64,000 bases of DNA from an uncultured delta proteobacterium (GCA_963789265.1 CAWBKB010000001.1:1568001-1632000); one strand, 5' to 3'; shown: positions 49,900 to 63,565, counted from the stretch's first letter. A program made the numbers and translations. Notes: generated by a model not told the origin, from the sequence alone.

Positions 49900-49970
49900 T
49901 AGCCGGCTCTGGATTCACCTAAACTTGGCGGGGGGCTTGCAAATTGCTATGGGGAGGAGTTGTCGTGTCT

Positions 49971-52900
49971 GTGCATAGGTACCTTGGCATAGATTGCGGG
50001 TCGGTTAGTCTGAATTTGGCTCTGCTTACCGATGGAACTAATGAACCCATCTCAGTGTATCTGCGAACCCGAGGGCGCCCTCTGCAAACGTTGGTAGAGG
50101 CCGCAGACGAGCTGATCACGATCTGTGGCACAGACGTGTCCATTACCTCAGCCCTGGTAACCGGGAGCGCTCGGGAACTACTAGCCAAGGCATTGAATAT
50201 CCCGGCGGTAAATGAGATCAGCGCCCACGCTGCAGGAATCCAGCACGTGAATCCCAGCGTGAAGACTGTCATTGAAATCGGAGGCCAGGATTCAAAATTC
50301 ATCAGGATACAACCCCTCCTGAATAGTGGCAAATCCCGCATTCACAGCTTCCGGATGAATGAGATCTGTGCTGCGGGAACCGGAGCGTTCCTGGACGAGC
50401 AGGCAGAAAGACTTGGGATCGGAATAGAATCATTCGGTTCGTTGGCGCTTCAGAGCGACAAGCCCGCTCCGATTGCCGGGCGCTGTGCGGTATTCGCTAA
50501 GACCGACATGATTCACCGGGCCCAAGAGGGAACGCCCCTTCCGGACATTTTGCTTGGACTTGCCTTTGCTCTTGTTCGTAATTATATCGCCACCTTGATA
50601 AGGGGAGACTCGCTGGTTCCTGTGGTTGCGCTCCAAGGTGGCGTGATGAGCAATCAGGCTGTTGTTCACGCGTTCCGGAAATTGCTCGATCTGGAAGAAG
50701 AACAGGTTCTGATTCCACCCCATTATAAGGTCATCGGCGCCTTAGGGTGCGCTGTGCTCACCGCCGGTTCCAAGTCCTTGCACGGACTCTCCCTCGGAAC
50801 TATCAAAGCCGCGGCTGACAAAGCTTCGCGAAATCCCTTTTCGCATTCGTTCTTCAATCCACTCAATCCGGCATTGAATTCGAAACCGCCGACCATAGAG
50901 ATCGCCGGCAACGGGGCCTTGTCGACAAGTCGCCTTGTCATGGGACTCGATGTTGGTTCGGTTTCCGTGAAAGGGGTGATCCTGGATGGTAAAGGCCGCG
51001 TTGTCAGAGAAGATTACCGCCTTTCCAGATCTCTTCCCCTGGAAGCGTTAGCACAGGTGGTAGGCTCCTTGACCGATGATGATATCAGCATCGCAGCGAT
51101 TGCGGTAACCGGTAGCGGCCGCCATCTTGCAGGCGGGCTCTTAGGTGCCGACCTGATCGTCAATGAAATTACCGCGCAGGCGTGCGCCGCACTCAGTTAC
51201 GACTCCGGTGCCGACACTGTCGTCGAAATTGGGGGACAGGATTCCAAGTGGATTTCTCTTGAAGACGGGCAAGTCGGGGACTTCGAGATGAATCGAGTTT
51301 GTGCCGCAGGCACTGGCAGTTTCTTGATGGCGCAAGCTCAACGTCTGGAGCTCCCCATGGGCGATACCTTTTCAGAGGCTGCTTTCGCATCATACAGACC
51401 CGCGGACCTGGGAAATCGGTGCACGGTCTTCATGGAATCGGACCTGATTCACCACCAGAATAACGGGGCGTCGTCCGAGGATTTGGCCGCGGGTGTCTGT
51501 ATCAGCATAGTTCACAACTATCTCGAACGAGTTGCGAATCACAAGCCTCTTGGAGAAAAAGTCCTCTTCATGGGCGGGGTAGCGGCTACTCCGGCAGTGA
51601 AAGCAGCGTTTGAGCAGCAAACTGGGCGCCGGTTCGAGACCCCGCCGTTCTTTCGAGTGTCCGGTGCCGTCGGGGCCGCATTGAAGGCATTGGAAGGACT
51701 TGAGGCCGAAACTATTGTTCCCGGACAACGTAAACCGATCCATTGGGATCCCGAACAAATCCGAAAGGAGCAATTTACCTGCAAAGGTTGCTCGAACCAG
51801 TGCAGTGTCAACAAATATAAATCCGGGGAAAGACAAGTCTTCCACGGAGGCTTATGTGACCGATGGGAGATGGATGACGGACCGCGGGGGCGCGGTGATG
51901 AGCCCGATCTCTTCTCATTCAGGGCCCGCCTTCTCAAGGAATTGTCCAGCACAAGTCTCAATGCGGACATATCCTGGGCGATGGTTCAGTCACCGCAATT
52001 CTACGAGTGGTTTCCGTTTTGGAAGGTCTTCTGCGAGGACTTGGGTATTTCGCTGCTGGTCTCCTCTCCGCCAACCCGGAAACAATTCGAGAGCGGCTCG
52101 CGGTTCCTGCGTGTTGAGACATGCCTCCCCATGAAGGCCATGGCAGGGCAGATCGAAGACCTGGTAAACCGAGGAGCAAAGATGCTGTTTCACCCGGCGA
52201 TTCTGAGCGAATCGCCTTCGGTCCGGGGAAACAAACCGTTGGACCATTGCCCGTTTATTCAGGCTTCCTCTCAGTTCTTTCGGGAAACCTTTGACGTCGA
52301 ATGGAAAGAGCCGGTGGTGAATTGCGAGATTGATGCGGATGCTCTCCGTAGGGAGTGTGTTTCGTTTGCTCGCGGTCTCGGGTTTTCACACTATAAAGCA
52401 ATGTCCGCGTTCGGAAAGGGGCAACAGCATCTCGAGCAATTTCAAGCTCGCCTTCGAAGAGAAGGGGAAGAATTCGTGAGCTCACTGGGCCCAACCGAGC
52501 CGGCAATTGTCGTGCTCGGCAAGCCATATCACACTTCCGATCCTTTTCTTAACATGAACCTGGGCAGCCTCCTTCATAGACTGGGGATTCGTGGTCTCCC
52601 CGGCGACCTGTATCCGCTGAGAAGTTCGGCTGCCGAGAAGCCGGTTTCTTGGAAATATCAAGGAAATATGATCCAGGTCGCCCGCGAAATAGCAGAAGAT
52701 CCAAGGCTCTTCCCGGTCCTTATCACTTTCTTCGGTTGTGGTCCCGATCCGTTTACTCTGCGCCATATTAAGGAAAGTATCGCAGACAAGCCCATGCTCA
52801 TCTTGGAAATGGACGAGCACTGCTCAAGGGCGGGGATTATTACCAGATTGGAAGCATTTCTTGACCGTATCACCCTGAGCAGGAACGGATGCAAGACGGG

Positions 52901-54308
52901 ATTACATTCACGTTCCGCGTCAAAGCCCGTTGACACTCCCGGAGAGAGCAGCGCGGAAGTTGCGGCTCAGCCGGCAATAGTCTCGGCCCACGGACCCTCG
53001 GCCTCCGAGACTAACGAGCAGCACCACTTTTCCATGAAGCATGGAGCACTTCAACCTGCCGGCAAGCACAAAGGGCACGGATCGAGAGCCGAAGTTCTCT
53101 ATATACCTTTTATAGGTGACCATGCTTTCGGATTTGCAGCAGCCGCCCGGTCGGTAGGAGTTGATGCCCGTGTACTTCCTCCTCCGGATGAAGAATCAGA
53201 GCGCCTGGGACGCCCGCACATGGTTGGTGGTGAGTGCCATCCGTACGCTCTGGTCCTGGGAGACTACCTCAAGGTTGCTCGGGTGCTGTCAACCGAAGAC
53301 GCGCGACGATCCCTATTTTACATACTAGGCCCTGACGCATGTCGGCTGGGACAATTCCCGACGTACATTGAGAAGGTTCGCCGCGAGCTCGGGCTCGGCG
53401 TCCATGTGATTCGGGACATAGATGAAGGGATCAATGCTTTCGCAGTTTCCGCGCGGAGCAGGCAGCAGGTGTTGCTAAGGGCCTGGGAGGGATTGAACGC
53501 GTATGACGTGCTGCTCCGGCTGTTTCTTCAAGTTCGCCCCAGGGCGCAAGATCGGGTGCTCCTCGAGCATGTTTACATTCGATGTCGAGACAAGCTCTAC
53601 AAAGCCCTTTCAGAGGGCAGGGTCAGAGCTGGGATGGACGAAGTCCTTCATGACCTTGATGCAGTGGCGCTGTACGACTCGGATCCTGTACCGGTTGTCG
53701 CTGTTACCGGTGACTATTACACTCGGATAGTGCCGTACGCCAATAATGACGTGTACAGTGAAATAGAGGCTCTCGGCGGCATGCTCTGGTCACCGCCGAC
53801 ATTCTCGGATAGTTACAAACTGGCGACGTTAAGGGATTTCTTGTGGAGCGTCATGACCGGCCGAACACGGGCTGCTGCTGAACACGGAATCTTTTATACT
53901 TTGATGACGATATCCGAATTTAAGGTCAAGGCACTACCGAGAGCTCGAAGGGCTCTAAACCGATCCATCGACCTGACCGGGTTGAATATGTGGAGAAAGG
54001 CTTCCGAGCATTCCCACAGCCGGCTTCCTCCGGGAATCAACGCCCCGCTTGCGACCGCGCTTAATTATCTGGATCAGGGTGCAGACGGCCTGCTCAACCT
54101 TATAACCCTGAACTGCTCTTATGGCACCGTGGTTACAGCAGCGCTGCTGCGAGCATTAAAGAAAAGACCCGGTATCCCGCTGCTAACGCTGGTCTTTGAC
54201 GGACTCAAGAAGACCAACGAAAAGACTCGCCTGGAAGCGTTCATGGAGCAGGTTAGAGACCGCTTTCATACCAGGTTGCAGCACCACGGGAAGCGATCCG
54301 CCGGCTGA
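49971..54308 (+). CDS. Acyl-CoA dehydratase activase-related multidomain protein (two BadF/BcrA-type ATPase domains + DUF2229-like regions)
   Basis: Two sets of GID/GLDxGS, EIGGQDSK, MNxxCAAGTG, RCxVF; ETCLP, FGCGPD, ECHP; start uncertain within 49944-49971. Confidence 0.9.
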   Translation: MHRYLGIDCGSVSLNLALLTDGTNEPISVYLRTRGRPLQTLVEAADELITICGTDVSITSALVTGSARELLAKALNIPAVNEISAHAAGIQHVNPSVKTVIEIGGQDSKFIRIQPLLNSGKSRIHSFRMNEICAAGTGAFLDEQAERLGIGIESFGSLALQSDKPAPIAGRCAVFAKTDMIHRAQEGTPLPDILLGLAFALVRNYIATLIRGDSLVPVVALQGGVMSNQAVVHAFRKLLDLEEEQVLIPPHYKVIGALGCAVLTAGSKSLHGLSLGTIKAAADKASRNPFSHSFFNPLNPALNSKPPTIEIAGNGALSTSRLVMGLDVGSVSVKGVILDGKGRVVREDYRLSRSLPLEALAQVVGSLTDDDISIAAIAVTGSGRHLAGGLLGADLIVNEITAQACAALSYDSGADTVVEIGGQDSKWISLEDGQVGDFEMNRVCAAGTGSFLMAQAQRLELPMGDTFSEAAFASYRPADLGNRCTVFMESDLIHHQNNGASSEDLAAGVCISIVHNYLERVANHKPLGEKVLFMGGVAATPAVKAAFEQQTGRRFETPPFFRVSGAVGAALKALEGLEAETIVPGQRKPIHWDPEQIRKEQFTCKGCSNQCSVNKYKSGERQVFHGGLCDRWEMDDGPRGRGDEPDLFSFRARLLKELSSTSLNADISWAMVQSPQFYEWFPFWKVFCEDLGISLLVSSPPTRKQFESGSRFLRVETCLPMKAMAGQIEDLVNRGAKMLFHPAILSESPSVRGNKPLDHCPFIQASSQFFRETFDVEWKEPVVNCEIDADALRRECVSFARGLGFSHYKAMSAFGKGQQHLEQFQARLRREGEEFVSSLGPTEPAIVVLGKPYHTSDPFLNMNLGSLLHRLGIRGLPGDLYPLRSSAAEKPVSWKYQGNMIQVAREIAEDPRLFPVLITFFGCGPDPFTLRHIKESIADKPMLILEMDEHCSRAGIITRLEAFLDRITLSRNGCKTGLHSRSASKPVDTPGESSAEVAAQPAIVSAHGPSASETNEQHHFSMKHGALQPAGKHKGHGSRAEVLYIPFIGDHAFGFAAAARSVGVDARVLPPPDEESERLGRPHMVGGECHPYALVLGDYLKVARVLSTEDARRSLFYILGPDACRLGQFPTYIEKVRRELGLGVHVIRDIDEGINAFAVSARSRQQVLLRAWEGLNAYDVLLRLFLQVRPRAQDRVLLEHVYIRCRDKLYKALSEGRVRAGMDEVLHDLDAVALYDSDPVPVVAVTGDYYTRIVPYANNDVYSEIEALGGMLWSPPTFSDSYKLATLRDFLWSVMTGRTRAAAEHGIFYTLMTISEFKVKALPRARRALNRSIDLTGLNMWRKASEHSHSRLPPGINAPLATALNYLDQGADGLLNLITLNCSYGTVVTAALLRALKKRPGIPLLTLVFDGLKKTNEKTRLEAFMEQVRDRFHTRLQHHGKRSAG

Positions 54309-54478
54309 ACGACGTCAGTTAGTACTCGATTTCCCGAACACGCGACCCTATTTCCGCGATGCAGTAATTGGGCAGTTTATGGTCCCCCTCGGGGAATGGG
54401 AGAAAAGCCCTCGCTTTCAGGCGAAGACCTCAGTACGTACAACCGTGTAATGGCGTGGCACAAAATGCAGAGATGCCG

Positions 54479-54587
54479 GTAGGATGCTGGTGAGTTCCGC
54501 GATACGCGGAACGAACCGCATCGTTCGCGGTTTTATCTCGATTGATGCGGTTCTCCCGCGCAGAACGCGGGCTCACCAGCGTCCTAC
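54479..54587. repeat. GTAG-type REP doublet with micro-hairpin inserts
   Basis: GTAGGATGCTGGTGAG..GAACCGCATC ... GATGCGGTTC..CTCACCAGCGTCCTAC. Confidence 0.7.
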
Positions 54588-54899
54588 GCTGATAGTGACT
54601 CCGATCCTCTGGCGGTAGCGACCGCCGGATTCATCCGGGAGAGCTAAAATGCCGCCGAAGTCACCACCTTCAGGCAGTGGAGCCCCCATTTTGCGATGTT
54701 TCAAGCTCCTCGCAAAGTTCGACCGCTCGCTTCAGGCGACTTCACTACACCTCAAGTTCATGGTAAATTGTAATTGCCTGCATAGGAACAACCACTTACA
54801 ATCTGCTAGGGTCCTTGTACGGCGTGGATAAGTGTGGGCGTCCGAAGGCTTGATCGAATACAAACCAGGGCGGTCGTAGGTCTGCCCTTGCCCCTCTCT

Positions 54900-54938
54900 G
54901 TGACACCTTTGTATGCTGACAGTATAACAGTGTTACAC
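54900..54938 (+). promoter_or_regulatory. Candidate sigma70 promoter with overlapping palindrome for the hfs-like operon
   Basis: GTGACA-17 bp-TATAAC; GTATAACAGTGTTACAC near-palindrome at 54922-54938. Confidence 0.45.
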
Positions 54939-54970
54939 CTTCGGTTCATTCGGGAAAGGAGTACCAGTCG

Positions 54971-55219
54971 ATGCGAGTGATCACCGTCTGCGTGGGGAGC
55001 GCCTGCCATCTCAAAGGTTCCCACGAGATAATAAACTATTTCAAGACAGCAATAGCAGAAGCCGGAGTCGAAAAGGAAGTAGAACTTAAAGGAACTTTTT
55101 GCATGGATCAGTGTACTGATGGAGCCAATCTTCTTATCGACGAACAAATTTTCCATGCCAATTCAGTCGACGATGCCAGGCAAATTTTTCAAACGGAGAT
55201 ACTCCAGAAGCTAAAGTAA
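54971..55219 (+). CDS. Thioredoxin-like [2Fe-2S] ferredoxin (HfsA-like)
   Basis: ITVCVGSACHLKGS..ELKGTFCMDQC. Confidence 0.88.
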   Translation: MRVITVCVGSACHLKGSHEIINYFKTAIAEAGVEKEVELKGTFCMDQCTDGANLLIDEQIFHANSVDDARQIFQTEILQKLK

Positions 55220-55233
55220 AAGGTGACGGCATC

Positions 55234-57540
55234 ATGGACTCAGCTAGACCTAAAAGAGTACCTTGGAAGAGTTGGAGTGACTTCACAGCATGGGCTCAGG
55301 ATTTCTCTCTGCGGCAAAAGGTGCTGGGGGGATTCCTGGGTGTGGTCGTGCTTGTGGGATTGGCCACGATCCTGATCGGCACCCGGCTTGCCAGGGAAAC
55401 GATTATCGATCGGGCCAGGATCCGGCTCTTCAGCGATCTTGCTACCGCTGGATTTATTTTGAAGAACTCCCAGGAAGGTTTGGAACTCAAGGTCCGCATG
55501 GCTGCGGATTCAGAGAAGTTCAAAGATCTTCTGGCCAAAGGAGAAATCCACGAAATTCGTAACAGTCTGGCAAAACTGGCAGTTGAAAACGATTTGGATT
55601 TCCTTTCTCTCACCGACGATAAGGGCCGAGTCCTGGCCAGGGCTTTTACTCCGGAAATCAAGAACAAGGACGTCTCTGCCGATCCTCTGGTCGCGGCTGC
55701 ACTGAAAGGACAGGATTCGTCCGGCGTGAGGCTGGTTTCCGTGGAAAGGCTTTCAGACGAGAACCCGACACTCCTTCGTCGCATAGGAGAACGCCCTGAC
55801 AAGAAAGGCATGATACTGGAAGCAGCGCACCACGTTGTCACGGGCTCGACGGTGACGGCTACGTTTTACGGTGGAATACTTCTCAATGGCAACAATATCA
55901 TTGTGGATACGATCTCACGTAGGCTCTTCAGAGGAGAAGTCTTCGATAAACGGGACGTCGGGTATGTGGCTATATTTCAGGGAGACCAGGCAGTCAGCAC
56001 CACTTTGAGGGGGCGAGATGGTCTGCCTGTCCTGGGTTTCACGGCGGGCGGGGAGATTCGCGACAAGGTTCTCGACATGGGGCAGACCGAAATCACCTGG
56101 GAATCTCAGCTAGGGGCCAGGTATCTTTCCGCGACCGATCCAATTCGCGACCCTGGGGGGAAGATCATAGGCGCTCTTCAGGTGGGCACCCTGGAAAAAC
56201 CCATTACCTCAGTCATCCACAGACTCGTGGGAACCTTTATGGTGGTCGCATTTTTCGGGGTTCTGCTGATGGCCGCGATTTCTTATTTCCTTGTCAAATG
56301 GATTAATCGGCCGCTCGAACAGATGCTCCACGCGGCGAGAAGAGCCGCTGACGGTGACTTGAGCCATGAAGTCCCTGTCATGGCCAGGGATGAAGTCGGC
56401 GAGTTGGCTGCGACATTCAACCTGATGATCCGCAATTTAGCCGAATCGCGTAAGAAACTGGAAGCGTGGGGCGAACAACTGGCGTCCAAGGTGGCAGCTC
56501 AAACCGGCGAATTGGATCAAGCTCGAGAACAGGTCGCGTGGGTCAGGAAACTCGCATCGCTTGAAAAAATGGCCGACGGGATGAGCCACATAATGGCGCA
56601 CATCTCGGACCCAATGGTCGGATTTGCCGCACCCGGGGACGGCAGCGGGACCACAAGTAGAATACTTATCCTGGATACAGACGAGAAAGTCCTCGAAATC
56701 TGCGAGCGTATCCTGGAGAGCGAAGGGTTCGAGGTGAAACTGGCCCGTACGGTCGACGAAGCCCTGGCGGATCTTGAGAAACAATTCTTCGATGTAGTCG
56801 TAGCGGACATCGACATGCCGGAAATGAGCGGCCAGGATCTTCTCAAGGAGATGAAGTACCGACAACCTGAAGTTCTCGTAATATTGACAGCGCCGTTCAA
56901 AGCGACCGAAGAAGCGGTCGAGGTGGTGAAAATGGGCGCTTACGATTATATACCCAAGCCTTTTGGTCCACATCAGATCCTGCTAATGGTCTATACAGCG
57001 CTCCAGACAAAAGAGATGCTCCAAAAGACACGGCGACAACATGCCGAACAGAGGGCCGAGGCGATCTTCCAGCGCCTGCCCGTGGCGATAGCTCTGGCCG
57101 ATAAAGCTCACCGCGTGGTCTACCACAACAGAGCTCTCACTGAACTTGCCGCGCAGGACGGGGAGGACACTGTTCGGGGCAAGACCTTCGGAGAACTATT
57201 CGGGGTCGATCCCCTGGATGAGGGCATGGGTGAAGAAGAATCCGGTGGCTCAAGATGGTTGCAACTCGACAAAGTCGGCCGCACCGCAAAACTTTACAAT
57301 TTCGAGCTGCCCGATGAGGACCTCAGGGTCTTGATGCTTCTGGACATTACCGACACCGTTATGAAGGACCAACAGGCCGACGTTTTCAAAACCGAGACAA
57401 TTACGAAAGCTCAGCAGGTCATACACCAGCAGATGCGTGTGGCCCAGGAGATAGCCGGATTGCTTGGAGAGACCACCGTGGAGACCAAAGCGGCCCTTTT
57501 TGAGTTGATCAAGCTGGCAGGTGAGGGAGAGTCACGATGA
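55234..57540 (+). CDS. Cache-HAMP-REC-PAS membrane sensor with HfsB-type C-terminal tail; no kinase ATPase or hydrogenase domain
   Basis: Two TMs around Cache region, HAMP (RPLEQM..DEVGELAATFNLM), REC (VVADIDMPEMSG..YIPKPF), PAS, tail QQMRVAQEIAGLLGETTVETK. Confidence 0.82.
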   Translation: MDSARPKRVPWKSWSDFTAWAQDFSLRQKVLGGFLGVVVLVGLATILIGTRLARETIIDRARIRLFSDLATAGFILKNSQEGLELKVRMAADSEKFKDLLAKGEIHEIRNSLAKLAVENDLDFLSLTDDKGRVLARAFTPEIKNKDVSADPLVAAALKGQDSSGVRLVSVERLSDENPTLLRRIGERPDKKGMILEAAHHVVTGSTVTATFYGGILLNGNNIIVDTISRRLFRGEVFDKRDVGYVAIFQGDQAVSTTLRGRDGLPVLGFTAGGEIRDKVLDMGQTEITWESQLGARYLSATDPIRDPGGKIIGALQVGTLEKPITSVIHRLVGTFMVVAFFGVLLMAAISYFLVKWINRPLEQMLHAARRAADGDLSHEVPVMARDEVGELAATFNLMIRNLAESRKKLEAWGEQLASKVAAQTGELDQAREQVAWVRKLASLEKMADGMSHIMAHISDPMVGFAAPGDGSGTTSRILILDTDEKVLEICERILESEGFEVKLARTVDEALADLEKQFFDVVVADIDMPEMSGQDLLKEMKYRQPEVLVILTAPFKATEEAVEVVKMGAYDYIPKPFGPHQILLMVYTALQTKEMLQKTRRQHAEQRAEAIFQRLPVAIALADKAHRVVYHNRALTELAAQDGEDTVRGKTFGELFGVDPLDEGMGEEESGGSRWLQLDKVGRTAKLYNFELPDEDLRVLMLLDITDTVMKDQQADVFKTETITKAQQVIHQQMRVAQEIAGLLGETTVETKAALFELIKLAGEGESR

Positions 57541-58695
57541 ACGATGCGTTGTTCATCGAAGCCGGCGGAGCTAACATCTGCAGGTACGGGGAAATACTTT
57601 GCGGAGACTCATTATCTGTTGCTCCGATGGGTGGTGGCAAGCTCATGGTCCTCTCCGACGGCCTTGGCAGTGGAGTCAAAGCAAACATCCTGGCTACCTT
57701 AACGACCAAGATAGCCATGCGGTTGATGGAACGGGGCCTTCCCCTCGAAGAAGTTGTAGCGACACTAACCGACACGCTTCCCGAGTGCAAAGTTAGGAAG
57801 ATTGCGTACAGCACCTTCACTTTGCTGAAGGTGTTGGAAGACGGGCGGGCATATCTTGCGGAGTTCGACAACCCGCCAACGTTCTTTCTCAAGCGAGGCT
57901 ATGTCAGCCAGTTGAGGTACAAGGATCGAGTTATCGGCGCGAGAAAAATCCGCGAGGCTCACGTCCACCTGAATGCCGGTGACTGGTTGATAACAGTCAG
58001 TGACGGTGAGATTCATGCCGGAATTGGCGGGCTGCTGAATCTCGGCTGGGATTGGGAAAAGATCGCCAAGTTCCTTGAGACCCAGGTCTATGAAGATATT
58101 TCCGCCCAAAAGGTTGCTCAGATACTGGTGGACCAGGCTCGCCAGCTCTATGAAGGGAAGCCGGGTGACGACACGACGGTTGGGGTATTGAAGATACGGC
58201 CCAAGCGCATCAGTGCGTTCATGATCGGTCCACCGGTGAGACGTGAAGATGACGACATCGTAGTGAAGCGATTCCTGGAGACACCCGGCCGCAAAATAGT
58301 CAGTGGTGGAACGACAGCGGGCATCCTTGGCAAAATGCTGGGAAAAGACGTGATAGTTGACCTCTCGACCATGACCAGCAAGATTCCGCCCACCGGAAAG
58401 TTGGACGGGATCGACCTCGTGACCGAAGGAGTCCACACAGTAAACCATGCACTGGAAATACTGGAAAAGGTGAAAGATATCGAACAGCTCGTTGCCAAGC
58501 GCGATGGTGCAAGCCGCCTCGCTTGGGAGTTCCTCTATGCGGACAGTATCAATATCTTGCTGGGCCAGGCCATCAACCCCGCGCGACCTGAATCCTAACT
58601 TGCCTCAGGAAATGGGGTTCAAGAGCCGTAGCGTGCAAGCCATTGCGAACCTTCTCAGAGATAGCGGCAAAGAGGTTAATCTTGAAATTCACTAA
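57537..58695 (+). CDS. SpoIIE/PP2C-family phosphatase (HfsC-like); +1 frameshift at about 58585
   Basis: LCGD, VLSDGLGSGVKANIL, AYSTFT, SDG, DDTTV, GGTTA, LVTEG; removing G58585 restores AINPAH and the C-terminus ending at 58695. Confidence 0.87.
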
Positions 58696-58752
58696 TTTCA
58701 GCTTCGCTATCCGACTGAAACCCCGTGGAACCGACATTGAAATTAGAAACGT

Positions 58753-59637
58753 ATGAGGATTATTGCACCAATGAGTTTAGCTTGTCCGGTCTGCCTAAGC
58801 GAAAATCGGGAAATGGACGGATTTGACCTGATTTCAGTCTTGGGCCTTATGAAAGAATACAATTGGCAAGAGATTTGGAAGCGATACCGCCCCCAGAGTT
58901 CTCGAAATGACACCATAAGCATGTACGTGCCCGCCGACCTCTATTTCATAGAAATGCACGTCCAAAAGATGCAGCGGATAATCCTTTCGGAAAAGTTCAA
59001 CACGAACCCCTTCTTCATGCAACAGGTCATCCAAAGGATAATCGCATCCCACGACCATGACCTCATTATGGGGAAGATACGACAGCAAGGGATTGACACT
59101 GGAGATAATCCCATCTCTTTGTCATGTTCAATGGGGGACACGATAATAGATTTGATCGTGAACAGAGAAGAACACCGCTCAAAAAGAGCTTCCGCTCGCC
59201 ACGAAAATACCCATATCGAGATGGTGGAGAACCGGCCGCTGGATATCTACGACCTCTCCTCCACGTTGTACCTCTGTCAGCAAAACCTCTCCGGTGCGAT
59301 CTTTAAGCGGTACGAGGACCCGGAAAGTCAGCCAGATAAAGACCCGTCGGATCGTCGGGTCACGATCCGAACTCAAGTGGGCGATTACTCTGTATGTTTG
59401 GACTTCAGACAGGTTTCCACCCGAACGGAAAGAATAATCCCTCCCCCCGGCAACGCATCGGTTTTCACAATGCATCAGGTTCTCCAGAGAATGAATTTCA
59501 GGCATGCACCGACGCTTATTCTGAAGGAACTCAACGACGTGGGGCTTTCAGTCACACCGGAGCAGCTAGACAATCAGTTCACGTTGCAGCGATACATAAA
59601 TGACACTGTCTTGCACCTGGACTTCAAACGCGCCTAA
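58753..59637 (+). CDS. Hypothetical protein with CPVC motif and internal two-fold domain repeat
   Basis: 294-aa ORF directly after the phosphatase; halves align (ENR..DL.S.L.L..KRY..RII..M.QV.QR..DT...L...R). Confidence 0.75.
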   Translation: MRIIAPMSLACPVCLSENREMDGFDLISVLGLMKEYNWQEIWKRYRPQSSRNDTISMYVPADLYFIEMHVQKMQRIILSEKFNTNPFFMQQVIQRIIASHDHDLIMGKIRQQGIDTGDNPISLSCSMGDTIIDLIVNREEHRSKRASARHENTHIEMVENRPLDIYDLSSTLYLCQQNLSGAIFKRYEDPESQPDKDPSDRRVTIRTQVGDYSVCLDFRQVSTRTERIIPPPGNASVFTMHQVLQRMNFRHAPTLILKELNDVGLSVTPEQLDNQFTLQRYINDTVLHLDFKRA

Positions 59638-59787
59638 GGCAGTTGCCATAAATGAGGTCTTTTTATTAGCGAGACGTTGTAGGGGCGAATGGCATTCGCC
59701 CAGGGCGGTCCCGCGTCCCGCGGGATCGCCCCTACAATCCCCGGATTTTATCCTCCGAATCGGACAAAACTTTTGGCAATGGGTATA
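59635..59787. mobile_element. 153-bp MITE, inverted copy of 21695-21847
   Basis: Same length, high similarity; its terminus overlaps the TAA stop of the upstream gene. Confidence 0.8.
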
Positions 59788-59813
59788 ATTTCCAGAATCT
59801 CTACGAGTGCCGC

Positions 59814-61946
59814 TTATCTCCCCATTTTTCCCAATGCCTTTCGACACGCGGCGGTCTCTTTGTATGGACCGCTCCTTTGCCACACAGGGTCATCGTAACG
59901 ATCGTGGCAAGGGAGGCATGGAGCAATGCTAACTATTCTTCGGATCTCTTCCTTATTGAATCCTCTCGACAGCTTGTGGGATGTGCTTTGCTGGACGCTC
60001 CCGGAACTATCGACTATTGCATCGACCGGGAAGCGTATTCGTAAACCCGAGCTCTTCGAATCGTAAATAGACAGCAATTCCATGGATTTGGTTTTAGAGT
60101 TCCAGGTCAGGATACCATCTCCCAGCCCCAGCGCTTTGGGGTCCGAGTGGCAGTCAACACAACGGGGCACCTCTTTTCGAACCGTATGAGGATGTGTGGG
60201 GCCCATTGCTATGGATGATAGACCGTTCTTGAGCTTCATGATTTTGGAATCGTACGGAGGAACGACTTTGCCTCCGGCATCGATGACCGTATTCCACACC
60301 TGGCATCCGGGAACGAGAATTCCCACCTTGCCTCTGGAGTTAATTCCGTAGATGTTCCGTTCAAATCGGAAGAAGCCCCGTCCCTCTGCCCATCGGCCTT
60401 TAGTCATATTTCCGGATATGTGATCCAAGCCCTTTGAACCAAGATCCAGGACTTGATGGCACCCGTAGCACTGCGGGCTCCAGGCGCTGTGGCAGGTATC
60501 GCACTCAAGCCGCTTGTGGCCGTAAATTGTGTGTCCGTTTTTCCTTCCTGTTATTATACTTACCGAATGTCCTTTGCCTGTAAGTTTGTCCGTGAGTCTC
60601 CATCCTTTTTCAGTGAGCCGGACATGAGGCATCGGCCTCTCTTTCGAGGTCTGAAGTATAACGTCGCCGTCGGCAAGCTTCAAAAGCGGGGAGGCCCTTA
60701 TCAAAGTACGCACCAGAGGATTGTTGTTGTCCACGGTCATGGTCCTGGGAGGGGTTGAGTAAGAGCCGTGGCAATCTTCGCACCGAATCTCTACCTGATC
60801 CTCTATATGAGCATAGATTTTGCCGTCCCCCATGGTGTCCTGACCTGCGTGGCAATCTATGCATGCCATTCCTTTTTCATGATGAATGTCGGGAACGAGA
60901 TTCCAGATGAATCTATTGTCGCTCAGCGTTTCGTCGTTGAGACCGCCGTGGACAAAGGGGGTCCCATACTGTGTGCTTTCCATTTGCCCGTGATAGCTCA
61001 AGCCGACCCTTGCGCTGCGATTGTGGCATGCCCGGCAGCGGTCGTCCGGGATCTTGTTGGTTATGGTATGGGTAGCCGGATGGCCGACTTCATCCCGTTT
61101 GACGGTAGGATCGCAGCCCACGTAATGGCCCTCTTTGCCATAAGGCGCATGGCATGCAGGGCAGCCTTCCATACGTCCCATCTTTTTTCTGTACCGGGAA
61201 TTCCACAGATGGCATGCTGCACAGAATTTTTGGAACTGGCTTGATGCAAGGTCGAGATCGCCTCTCCGGTTGATTTCCGGTGGGACTGCCGCGAGGCTGG
61301 TCTTGCCATCAGATACAGATCGGATGGCGAACCTGGGGTTGTTGTCCTTCTCCAGCCCCCATTGGAAGCGCAATATGCTGATTATCCCCGCGTTGGTGGC
61401 CATCAAAGACTTGGGAACATTTTCAACACGATTAAGCAGCGGATTCACCCTTCCGGAATGACAGGTTCCTGCACCGGGAGCAGAGCTGCCGCAGCCCACG
61501 GGTGCCAGATCGAGCCTGGCGGGATTGCGTCCACCTCTTAAGCCGAGATGTGCGCCTCGGACTGTAAGATCCGCGGCATTACCGCCGTGGCAGGTGACGC
61601 AACCGAAAACAGAGTTGGGATGGGATTCGGACACGTCTTCAATTCCGAAATGGCAGGACATACAGCGTTCCGGAGGCAACTTGCCGCCAAAGGGGCTGAT
61701 CTCAATCACCTTCGGCGGTTTGTTCCTCAAGATTTCTATCTGCGCGAGAATTTGTCGCTTTTGGGCCAGCCGCGGTTCATCTGCCAAATTCTTTTCCAGG
61801 TGCGCTATTGTTAGAGCTATCCCCTTTCTTTGATAGCTTTGCCATTCAGGATTGCGGCCACGATATTCGACGTAAGCGAACGCAGCCAACAGAGCCATGC
61901 CTGCCGCCACAGTTGCGAGCCGGAACCCGGAGCCTGATGTCTTCAT
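59814..61946 (-). CDS. Multiheme cytochrome c (11 CXXCH + one CX9CH), ExtM-like
   Basis: N-terminal TM; CMSCH, CVTCH, CAACH, CPACH, CRACH, CIDCH, CEDCH, CDTCH, CYGCH, CVDCH, CLPCH. Confidence 0.88.
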   Translation of the reverse strand: MKTSGSGFRLATVAAGMALLAAFAYVEYRGRNPEWQSYQRKGIALTIAHLEKNLADEPRLAQKRQILAQIEILRNKPPKVIEISPFGGKLPPERCMSCHFGIEDVSESHPNSVFGCVTCHGGNAADLTVRGAHLGLRGGRNPARLDLAPVGCGSSAPGAGTCHSGRVNPLLNRVENVPKSLMATNAGIISILRFQWGLEKDNNPRFAIRSVSDGKTSLAAVPPEINRRGDLDLASSQFQKFCAACHLWNSRYRKKMGRMEGCPACHAPYGKEGHYVGCDPTVKRDEVGHPATHTITNKIPDDRCRACHNRSARVGLSYHGQMESTQYGTPFVHGGLNDETLSDNRFIWNLVPDIHHEKGMACIDCHAGQDTMGDGKIYAHIEDQVEIRCEDCHGSYSTPPRTMTVDNNNPLVRTLIRASPLLKLADGDVILQTSKERPMPHVRLTEKGWRLTDKLTGKGHSVSIITGRKNGHTIYGHKRLECDTCHSAWSPQCYGCHQVLDLGSKGLDHISGNMTKGRWAEGRGFFRFERNIYGINSRGKVGILVPGCQVWNTVIDAGGKVVPPYDSKIMKLKNGLSSIAMGPTHPHTVRKEVPRCVDCHSDPKALGLGDGILTWNSKTKSMELLSIYDSKSSGLRIRFPVDAIVDSSGSVQQSTSHKLSRGFNKEEIRRIVSIAPCLPCHDRYDDPVWQRSGPYKETAACRKALGKMGR

Positions 61947-62332
61947 GCAAGGTAGCCCCAGACGGTCAAGAAAATCACAGCTCCGCCAATCACAAAGAAT
62001 AGAGTACGTATAAGAGTTCGTTTGTCACAGGCGTAGGGTACCAGGGCTAAGGCGAGGAGCACAACCAGGGGAATAATGATTCCCGCGATGATAGGAGGGA
62101 AGTAACGCAGCATTTGCTGGATTCCCACGAAGATCCAAGGGGCCTTGACGTGTTCGGCAGCGAGGCCCGCAGCATCTGCTGGTGCCTTTATTGGAGCGTC
62201 TACCAGAGACGAGAGCAACGCGGCCGCGGCCAAAGTAATCAAGGCTGCAAGTCCTTCCTTGCGAAGAAGATCGGGAACGCTTCGTATTCTGGGATTTTGC
62301 CGCGCGGTCTCTTTTTGCACTGAACACTCCAT
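61943..62332 (-). CDS. Cytochrome b subunit-IV-like membrane protein (ExtQ-like)
   Basis: Three TM segments; DAPIKAPAD..KAPWIFVGIQQML; 4-bp overlap with cytochrome gene. Confidence 0.7.
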   Translation of the reverse strand: MECSVQKETARQNPRIRSVPDLLRKEGLAALITLAAAALLSSLVDAPIKAPADAAGLAAEHVKAPWIFVGIQQMLRYFPPIIAGIIIPLVVLLALALVPYACDKRTLIRTLFFVIGGAVIFLTVWGYLA

Positions 62333-62368
62333 TTCCCAAATGTGGTCTCGCGTTCCGGTACAATAGCT

Positions 62369-62518
62369 GTCATTCTCGCGTATGCGGGAATCCAGACATT
62401 GGCGGACAAGATGCCCACCCTACTATCGCAGGTCGTCGTTACCATGTTCGCGGGAATACATTGTAGGGGCACCTCTAGTGGGTGCCCGCGAGGGGGCAGG
62501 CGCAAGGTCGGCCCCTAC
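62369..62518. repeat. Cluster of REP-like repeats
   Basis: GTCATTCTCGCGTATGCGGGAATCC and GTAGGGGCACC..GGCCCCTAC. Confidence 0.6.
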
Positions 62519-62556
62519 GAACCCTTGAAACGCGAGTGTGCTACGACTGAATAAAT

Positions 62557-63565
62557 TTACTCTTTTATAATACGGAATCCTACCGTGCGATAGTAACCTC
62601 GGGGAGATGCCTTGTGGCGGTTCCGAATCCTCTTTGAGGCTTGTACAGAGGCCCACGAGCCTCCTCTTATGTTCTTTTCCTCGCCCAATGCAGGCCCCAC
62701 GGGGTTGCTCGAGGGGCTCTCGTGGTAGTAGTCATGCGAATACCAGTCCAGGCACCATTGCCATACGCTACCTGTTATCCCGGTCACTCCTTTGGCCCCG
62801 TGCACGGCCATGGTCACAGGGACGCTGCATTCCTTCGACAGGATGGCCATAGAGTTACCGGCAGTGTCGGGAGTGCAGAGCAGAGCGGCCTTTTCCCATT
62901 CCGCGGAAGTAGGAAGGCGACCTCCCGCCCACTCGGCATACTCGGCAGCCCCGTACCAGGACACACAAACCATGGGCTTGTCCGCACAGCCTTCTTTGGG
63001 CGTGAAAACTTTGCCGATCTTAACTATAGGACAATCGGGGCTGGTCAGCTTGATCCTTGGGAATCCATCCTTGGAATTCTCTCCCCGCGCGTTGAGAAAA
63101 TCGCAGTATTGCTTTGCTGTGACCTCGTACTTGGCAATGTAGAAATCCTCTATGAAGACCTTGTGAGCCGGACGTTCGTCGGGCCTTCCTTCGCCTTCGG
63201 GGCTCCCCATGTCAAAAGGGCCGGCAGGGATGAGAACCATACCTCTGTACTTTCCAACACCCTCAACTAGATTATTCGCGTCAACCGACGGCGTAGGAGC
63301 GCTGGGTTTGGGAACCGGCTTCAGCTTGGGAGGGAGAGGAACAGATGGACCGCCGGGACAACCGGGCAGCAAGGGGCAGTTGGATATGTTCGGCTCAGAT
63401 TGATCAGCAGACCGGCTCACCAGGCAGAAAGGCGACGAATTCTCGTTCAAGCGGCTCGAATTGTCGCCTGCGGCCCGGCCACCGGTCCAAAGAGGCAGTA
63501 CCGACCGCGATACCCAAACACAGCGCCCAGGTCTTCAGATTCCATTCGGGCGCCGCCAGGTCCAC
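62557..63565 (-). CDS. FGE/sulfatase-modifying-factor domain exported protein; +1 frameshift at about 63503
   Basis: MVLIPAGPFDMGS, DERPAH, YEVT, RLPTSAEWEKAA, VWQWC, RGGSW, GFR; removing one base adds a signal peptide from GTG 63565. Confidence 0.8.

Follow-up and report, generated by a model that had tools for sequence, protein, structure and literature searches.

In the accessible part of PMC11837493, the hfs operon has the order hfsA-hfsB-hfsC-hfsD, in which HfsB is a hydrogenase with a PAS domain, HfsC is a serine phosphatase and HfsD is a HydA2-like protein. HydS and HfsB are putative sensory group C [FeFe]-hydrogenases, and the available text of PMC5037454 gives 'phosphatase-linked (putative)' as the HydDB context of group C3. 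A 2026 preprint on Kiritimatiellia, as far as its accessible text goes, describes hydS together with a PP2C phosphatase and a small [2Fe-2S] ferredoxin at the hydrogenase loci of these bacteria. Another 2026 study argues, in its available portion, against the HydS signal being carried by the C-terminal Fe-S cluster through its redox state (PMC13104023). Here we analyzed a 64,000-nucleotide stretch of DNA from an uncultured delta proteobacterium (GCA_963789265.1 CAWBKB010000001.1:1568001-1632000), called the window below, with positions counted from its first letter. A three-gene cassette spanning window positions 54971-58695 encodes a small ferredoxin, a 768-aa sensor and a SpoIIE-type phosphatase. 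The sensor ends in a PAS-tail module that matches the C-terminus of HydS, and its N-terminal part is a membrane-bound Cache-HAMP-receiver (REC) arrangement in place of a hydrogenase.

All three genes of the cassette lie on the plus strand. The first encodes the 82-aa ferredoxin (54971-55219; open reading frame (ORF) call, PF01257) and is separated by a gap of 14 nt from the sensor gene (55234-57540; ORF call, Pfam), whose stop overlaps the start of the phosphatase gene in an ATGA at 57537-57540. The phosphatase ORF as called encodes 353 aa (57537-58598; ORF call, SpoIIE Pfam match), and the full extent of this HfsC-type phosphatase, given over two frames by alignment with its orthologues, is 57537-58695. 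The original prediction had named a tight triad of a thioredoxin-like [2Fe-2S] protein, a 768-aa sensor and a SpoIIE phosphatase with an ATGA overlap, and the ORF calls and Pfam confirmed it.

The sensor is composed, in order, of a first transmembrane segment (TM1), a periplasmic sCache region, TM2, HAMP, a helical linker, REC, PAS and a C-terminal tail. TM1 (aa 28-53) and TM2 (aa 326-357) were called as hydrophobic segments on either side of the Cache region. Pfam placed sCache_3_3 at aa 217-329 in the periplasmic region (55882-56220, E 2.2e-14), HAMP at aa 352-403 (56287-56442, E 2.1e-15) and Response_reg, the REC domain, at aa 477-586 (56662-56991, E 9.4e-25), and NCBIfam returned generic response-regulator matches only. 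With C490 as its one cysteine in 768 aa, the sensor therefore has no motif for an Fe-S cluster or an H-cluster. Pfam found neither a hydrogenase nor an Fe-S family on it; PF02906 had no match at E <= 0.1, and neither Fer4 nor PF04060 was matched. The TM-Cache-TM-HAMP plus receiver N-terminus and the lack of H-cluster or FeS cysteine motifs, both claimed in the original prediction, were thus borne out. Pfam and NCBIfam revealed no output domain of the HisKA/HATPase, MCP-signal, GGDEF, EAL or DNA-binding kind in the sensor. In common with hybrid Cache-HAMP receptors and REC proteins, it has a periplasmic Cache domain between two transmembrane segments, a HAMP domain and an intact receiver, but its only output-like element is the HydS-type PAS-tail.

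The same architecture was present at full length (730-810 aa) in 105 of 119 other listed protein clusters. An orthologue (P0027) is also present in the cultured relative Desulfomonile tiedjei. In comparison with these 105 orthologue clusters, the most variable part of the sensor was the Cache region (mean 53% identity) and the most conserved was the tail (90%). The receiver pocket is complete in the window sensor, with D481, D483, D525 at the acceptor position, T552 and K575. Among 106 aligned sensors, D481 and K575 were invariant, T552 was T in 96 and S in 10, and the acceptor D525 was D in 82, E in 12 and A in 8. One orthologous sensor, that of a MAG (metagenome-assembled genome; L006:5203-7513), is read as two ORFs (194 and 569 aa), owing to either a stop or a fault in the assembly.

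The PAS-tail module occupies aa 601-768 of the sensor (57034-57537, plus strand) and was delimited by its homology to HydS-type [FeFe]-hydrogenases. The last 168 residues, which include PAS and the QMRVAQEIAGLLGETTVETK helix, were searched against 1.84 billion representative proteins. There were 497 matches at E <= 1e-3 and 47 at E <= 1e-10; after the close orthologues, these were mostly proteins of ~550-590 aa aligned over their last ~165 residues. The C-termini of HydS/HfsB-type proteins matched the window module end to end, from E 5.5e-18 and with 30-37% identity over ~165 aa. These matches go far beyond chance and agree with the earlier claim of a PAS domain and tail shared with HfsB; judged by these alignments, the tail is homologous to the HydS C-terminus. 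The search with a HydS tail also retrieved P0330, a 582-aa protein named Thermoanaerobacterium by its source, and BLASTP of the window module against it gave 30% identity over 161 aa (E 4e-15) with the motif intact. In a profile search of the PDB, generic PAS domains matched module positions 5-125, and no structure covered the tail.

The domains in front of the matching C-termini were determined with Pfam for 77 of the 150 listed matches. The HydS architecture of Fer4, Fe_hyd_lg_C (PF02906), PF04060 and PAS was found in 37 of the 77, and another 12 had PF04060 and PAS without the hydrogenase part and may be fragments. One was a REC-PAS-tail protein (P0126), one had a Complex1_51K piece, two were generic multi-PAS proteins that aligned in PAS only, and the remaining ones were short. 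In the hydrogenase-bearing homologues PF04060 directly precedes PAS, and in the window sensor REC stands in that place. A phmmer census of all 150 listed matches gave 82 hydrogenase-type proteins, 43 tail-only proteins or fragments, 20 others, 3 with REC only (two of them Cache-type fragments) and 2 with Cache-REC. Alignment of 81 PAS-tails showed 11 invariant positions (Q133, M134, I140, A141, L143, L144, G145, E146, T147, T148 and K152 of the module), all in the terminal helix, with the consensus KQMRVAQEIAsLLGETTAETK. In the window sensor this alignment placed the tail motif QMRVAQEIAGLLGETTVETK at aa 733-752 (57430-57489, plus strand).

Two proteins carried the tail in other settings. P0126 (297 aa), which shares 36% identity with the window module, is a soluble protein of REC, PAS and tail without Cache or HAMP and represents a fourth architecture. 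Its locus was sought in metagenome contigs, which returned 63 loci, none of them REC-type: hydrogenase-type loci made up 51, a PAS-tail frame without a detected input domain was present in 10 (8 of these cut by the contig end) and 2 were tail-less. In P0173 (299 aa) the tail motif stands behind a Nuo51 FMN-binding fragment (Complex1_51K), which may be a fusion or a miscalled ORF.

Conservation of the cassette was analyzed by scanning genomes for IA[GS]LLGETT. At least 601 stretches matched and at least 594 were confirmed; the best 80 loci were kept, and the window proteins were mapped onto them by phmmer. By architecture, 64 were hydrogenase loci, 11 were Cache-HAMP-REC loci and 5 had a bare PAS-tail. 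The hydrogenase form was found in Bacillota, Bacteroidota, Armatimonadota, Planctomycetota, Atribacterota and Bipolaricaulota; among its carriers are the named isolates Acetobacterium tundrae, Clostridium frigidicarnis, Pelotomaculum propionicicum and Thermosediminibacter litoriperuensis. The Cache-HAMP-REC loci belonged to Desulfomonilaceae and similarly labelled metagenome-assembled genomes (MAGs), and the bare PAS-tails (170-177 aa) to four Floridaenema/Phormidium cyanobacteria and one Phototrophicaceae MAG. In all 80 loci the PAS-tail gene was immediately followed by the two-domain phosphatase gene, which formed a single ORF in 77, was split in 2 and was truncated by the contig end in 1. 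The gene for the small ferredoxin was 5' of the PAS-tail gene in 73 (70 directly 5' as an ORF of its own and 3 within a longer called ORF); 4 of the other loci were cut before it, and in 3 (L015, L074 and L078) it was not detected. In none of these loci did the conserved triad include a kinase gene.

Each product of the window cassette matched its counterpart at the hydrogenase-type loci, the ferredoxin at E 1e-11 to 1e-22, the PAS-tail at about 1e-14 to 1e-19, and the phosphatase at about 1e-47 to 1e-72 for its N-terminal domain and 1e-15 to 1e-38 for its C-terminal domain. The claim that the triad corresponds to hfsA-hfsB-hfsC therefore held for the ferredoxin, the HydS-type sensor and the PP2C phosphatase and not for the tail alone. 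By sequence comparison all three genes are homologous to the HydS-type triad, and their order is fixed. At HydS/HfsB loci, as in the window, the homologous ferredoxin gene is 5' and the two-domain PP2C gene is 3' (37-49% identity), usually with overlapping or abutting genes. The order at the hydrogenase-type loci agrees with the hfsABCD order as given in the accessible part of PMC11837493, and many of them go on with a HydA2-like hydrogenase of ~480 aa. In contrast to HydS, the window sensor lacks Fer4, PF02906 and PF04060 and has a TM-sCache-TM-HAMP-REC N-terminus instead. In contrast to the hfs operon, the window locus has no HydA2/HfsD-like hydrogenase gene 3' of the cassette, the genes neighbouring the cassette are not hydrogen-related, and the host genome has no [FeFe]-hydrogenase. 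The sensor is no hydrogenase, so the signal of the hfs-type cassette, H2, does not carry over to it.

The bare cassettes have the same gene order and no hydrogenase domain fused to the PAS-tail; they differ in that the 170-177 aa PAS-tail has no input domain and that they lie beside hox-type [NiFe] or HydAB-type [FeFe] genes. Of the five bare loci (L039, L045, L051, L058 and L075), the flanks were scanned in L039 and L075. In a Floridaenema (L039:609-13865) the cassette follows hoxE-, hoxF-, hoxU-, hoxY- and hoxH-like genes and precedes CP12-CBS and PFOR genes. In the Phototrophicaceae MAG (L075:45-4708) it follows genes for a HydB-like protein and a HydA-like protein (573 aa, PF02906 plus a small-subunit domain), and this hydrogenase is a neighbour of the PAS-tail, not its fusion partner.

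The 82-aa protein matched PF01257 (2Fe-2S_thioredx) in Pfam with E 2.4e-7 and 31.2 bits against a cut-off of 24.8. The match spans only profile positions 67-142 of 145, so that the protein is a minimal form, and its NCBIfam match was NuoE-like. The ligand set CxxxxC...CxxxC corresponds to Cys7, Cys12, Cys44 and Cys48, and these four cysteines were invariant in 71 of 71 ferredoxins from all three locus types. From the gene order and the published description of the operon, the ferredoxin would be HfsA-like.

The phosphatase consists of a SpoIIE/RsbU-like PP2C domain and a conserved C-terminal alpha/beta domain of ~160 aa. SpoIIE (PF07228) matched aa 36-220 of the 353-aa protein with E 3e-17, and the PP2C motifs D24, D41, G42, D156, G157, D211 and D212 were invariant in 77 phosphatases. 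The phosphatases of the Cache and the hydrogenase forms share 37-49% identity and 42 invariant columns, including the PP2C Asp motifs. An intact orthologous phosphatase was modelled by AlphaFold with confidence, at a pLDDT score of 88.4, and its C-terminal domain at 92.5. In Foldseek the modelled N-terminal domain matched SpoIIE (5mqh, E 3e-16, TMt 0.71) as well as RsbU and other PP2C structures. The C-terminal domain had no Pfam family, and no PDB structure reached E <= 1e-3 in Foldseek; the closest was methylglyoxal synthase at about 1e-2. A wider structural alignment with VIA-align pointed to a Rossmann-like fold, with the alpha/beta domains of NuoG, FhcB and formate dehydrogenase matching at borderline Z scores of 9.9-7.6, and we place the domain in no family.

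Orthologous phosphatases are 384-385 aa long, in comparison with the 353 aa called in the window. Nucleotide alignment showed one extra base near 58577-58585, where the window has 'gcgcgacc' and the orthologues have 'gcgc-acc'. Past the inserted base, the conserved end ...HLNPNLPQEMGFKSRSVQAIANLLR..GKEVNLEIH runs on in the other frame to 58695 (ORF 58492-58695). The prediction of a SpoIIE phosphatase was right in the identity of the protein, with the correction that it is really ~385 aa and that its ORF is cut by a one-base insertion. A soil-metagenome contig (depth 3.6), which may derive from the source sample, lacks one letter at 58585. In the same genome, a second SpoIIE-family gene (G000:C1:352438-353029; L083, L085) has its Pfam pieces 1-111 and 107-191 in different frames, which suggests further indel errors in the assembly. 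Because the soil contig lacks the extra letter and another SpoIIE gene is also split between frames, the frameshift in the window is probably an assembly error.

The distribution of the cassette was investigated in 70 genomes of the window's family. The Cache form of the PAS-tail was present in 64 of them, in 25 of 26 genera, and in 34 of the 36 high-quality genomes (>=90% completeness, <=5% contamination), nearly always as a single copy in an open frame of ~770 aa. PF02906 was found in 7 of the 70 genomes and in 4 of the 36, and had no match in the window's own genome, which is 95.6% complete. The [NiFe]-hydrogenase genes of that genome are each at least 600 kb from the locus on its contig or on another contig. 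The original prediction had allowed that the sensor gene might be a misassembly chimera; its full length in 105 of the 119 clusters and its presence in 64 of the 70 genomes show that it is not.

The origin of the hydrogenase-free forms was examined by phylogeny. In a tree of 77 phosphatases the Cache-linked genes formed one clade (Shimodaira-Hasegawa-like approximate likelihood ratio test (SH-aLRT) 100) and the standalone-linked genes one separate clade (100). Both were placed among hydrogenase-linked branches, with a locus of Planctomycetota (91) and one of Caldatribacterium (87) as nearest neighbours. A tree of ferredoxin plus tail again gave one clade per form, with different and poorly supported sister groups. 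With a SpoIIE paralogue of the same genome as outgroup, the root fell among the hydrogenase-linked rows on a branch of ~10 changes per column, and this root is unreliable because the outgroup branch is saturated. For each of the hydrogenase-free forms, a single origin from a hydrogenase-linked ancestor is probable. The earlier statement that the hydrogenase was 'swapped for' the receptor is thus correct in that the receptor stands in the place of the hydrogenase, while the direction of the change is weakly supported, given weak trees and a saturated outgroup.

We consider it fairly likely that this locus is a hydrogenase-free cassette in which the Cache and REC inputs of the sensor control the adjacent PP2C phosphatase through the PAS-tail, with the ferredoxin. 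A periplasmic ligand would be sensed by the Cache domain, and the signal would be relayed via TM2 and HAMP. As a second input, REC would be phosphorylated by an unlinked histidine kinase, and both inputs would meet at the C-terminal PAS and helical tail. The PAS-tail and the co-encoded [2Fe-2S] ferredoxin would then set the activity of the SpoIIE-type Ser/Thr phosphatase in trans, and the phosphatase would in turn dephosphorylate a target. The parts of this scheme that we infer are the physical interaction among PAS-tail, ferredoxin and phosphatase, the direction in which the control acts, and the protein acted on. Control of the PP2C by PAS and helix is the simplest reading because the only conserved C-terminal element of the sensor is the module that HydS-type sensors pair with the same phosphatase. 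The activity of PP2C phosphatases of the RsbU, RsbP and SpoIIE type is set by sensor domains and helical linkers. These partner-switching phosphatases have the same catalytic fold and motifs as the window phosphatase, but the latter has no N-terminal regulatory domain, the PAS-plus-helix being on a separate protein, and it has an extra C-terminal alpha/beta domain and no STAS or kinase partner nearby. In T. saccharolyticum, according to the available part of PMC5707799, loss of hfsA or hfsB gives a high ethanol yield only with hfsC and hfsD intact, and this genetics of a related system fits a sensor and a ferredoxin that act through the phosphatase. A predicted complex of the phosphatase with the PAS-tail, run without controls, scored 0.04 in comparison with a mark of 0.32, which bears on binding in neither direction.

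The following observations weigh against this proposal. On aa 609-662 of the sensor, the PAS models of Pfam stayed below threshold (18-20.5 bits against cut-offs of 21.8-23.1), and PAS was assigned because homologues pass the Pfam cut-offs and the PDB profile matches PAS domains. The acceptor Asp is replaced by E or A in 20 of the 106 orthologue clusters, so not every member of the family can depend on phosphorylation. Genes for a histidine kinase, a Ser/Thr kinase or a STAS-type substrate are lacking beside the cassette. Finally, a genuine phosphatase frameshift would leave this strain with a disabled cassette.

Another explanation is that the core of the cassette is a redox switch, in which the ferredoxin would be the primary sensor, read by the PAS-tail and the phosphatase, and the N-terminal modules would only modulate or feed it. 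In HydS systems H2 would then act by reducing the small ferredoxin. The ferredoxin and all four of its cysteines are kept in all three architectures, even where the PAS-tail has no sensor domain, and the standalone cassettes adjoin redox enzymes (hox and PFOR genes in L039, HydB- and HydA-like genes in L075). As reported in the accessible text of PMC13104023, H2 does not reduce the C-terminal [4Fe-4S] cluster of a group D HydS, a finding in favour of the same explanation. The best fold matches of the phosphatase C-terminal domain, to NuoG, FhcB and formate dehydrogenases (Z 9.9 to 7.6, borderline), would also point to redox proteins, but Z scores of 8-10 are in the range that the tool also gives for unrelated Rossmann-like folds. 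In Desulfomonilaceae, moreover, the large periplasmic and REC input is conserved across the lineage, which argues against mere accessories, and we regard this explanation as rather unlikely. A broader proposal, possible though somewhat doubtful, is that the ferredoxin, PAS-tail and PP2C form an autonomous and ancient redox-to-phosphorylation switch, whose actual signal would be the ferredoxin's redox state. H2 sensing by HydS would be one of at least three feeds of this switch (an H-cluster, a periplasmic ligand with phosphorelay, or none), and in Desulfomonilaceae the switch would have been uncoupled from hydrogen. In that case the Desulfomonilaceae cassette would be a family-wide regulator integrating an extracellular cue with the cellular redox state.

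The tail could also be the substrate of the phosphatase, with the Thr-Thr of LLGETT (T747/T748) phosphorylated by an unlinked Ser/Thr kinase and reset by the adjacent PP2C. All 81 aligned modules have T147 and T148, and at the positions of T747 and T748 the Cache-type proteins have T in 106 and 104 of 106, respectively. However, the conservation covers the whole 20-residue helix and not the Thr pair alone, which fits an interface better than a phosphosite; the conserved triad includes a kinase gene in none (0/80) of the loci, and a tail that served as substrate would leave the cassette without an output. We therefore consider this improbable. A trivial resemblance, whether from a generic PAS match or from the misassembly of a receptor with a HydS fragment, has almost no likelihood: the PAS scores of the sensor are below the Pfam cut-offs and the assembly contains indel errors, but the match reaches the C-terminal end by way of a motif outside PAS, the genes on either side are homologues as well, and locus synteny and the recurrence of the architecture in 64 of 70 family genomes and 11 independent assemblies contradict it.

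No description of the hydrogenase-free form or of the tail motif was found in the HydS, PAS and PP2C literature, in a search that did not extend to most subscription journals and supplements. This agrees with the original prediction, which knew of no description of the architecture, although the sensor proteins themselves are already deposited in databases under the generic name 'response regulator'. The link of these proteins to HydS was not found in print in the same search, and the domain swap is of a type common in signal transduction. The link assigns a context to a protein that is present in nearly every Desulfomonilaceae genome and annotated only as 'response regulator', and it shows that gene neighbourhood alone is insufficient to call an H2 sensor at HydS-type cassettes. 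The constant core across the hydrogenase, receptor and bare forms consists of the PAS domain with its 20-residue helix, a minimal [2Fe-2S] ferredoxin and the PP2C with its C-terminal domain. This core names the parts for binding tests, for which the three forms are natural 'domain-swap' controls, and would be of use in work on HydS signalling and on Desulfomonilaceae.

The genes around the cassette were also analyzed. Across the 11 related Cache-type loci, the triad alone was constant. A 294-aa ORF (58753-59637, plus strand) follows the phosphatase gene and falls within the coordinates of the original prediction, which does not mention it; it was assigned to no family, with no Pfam, NCBIfam or Atlas match, and carries an N-terminal CPVC. 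Of the 10 related Cache-type loci that have downstream sequence, 6 carry it 3' of the cassette, and it was absent from the hydrogenase-type and standalone loci among the 80 compared. It is uncertain whether this ORF is part of the cassette unit; its product could be a lineage-specific target or unrelated to the cassette. An Rfam scan of 54000-60000 gave no match at E <= 0.1, and a look for RNA evidence turned up no entry listed for this stretch. A terminator-like stem-loop (54509-54527) in the 662-nt gap between the upstream activase gene and the ferredoxin gene, and a promoter-like site (54774-54802) 5' of the ferredoxin gene, are consensus matches only, and in the promoter and terminator scan of the locus the signals were no better than chance. 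The activase gene, at 49944-54308, encodes a 1454-aa protein in which two BcrAD/BadFG-type activase ATPase domains are fused to DUF2229 and an HGD-D-like C-terminus, and an activase gene is also 5' of the cassette in 3 of the 11 related loci. On the minus strand, convergent with the cassette, the region 59814-63450 encodes a multihaem cytochrome c of 710 aa, a membrane protein of 129 aa and a protein of the FGE-sulfatase family, and this set of three genes recurs in one of the related loci (L002).

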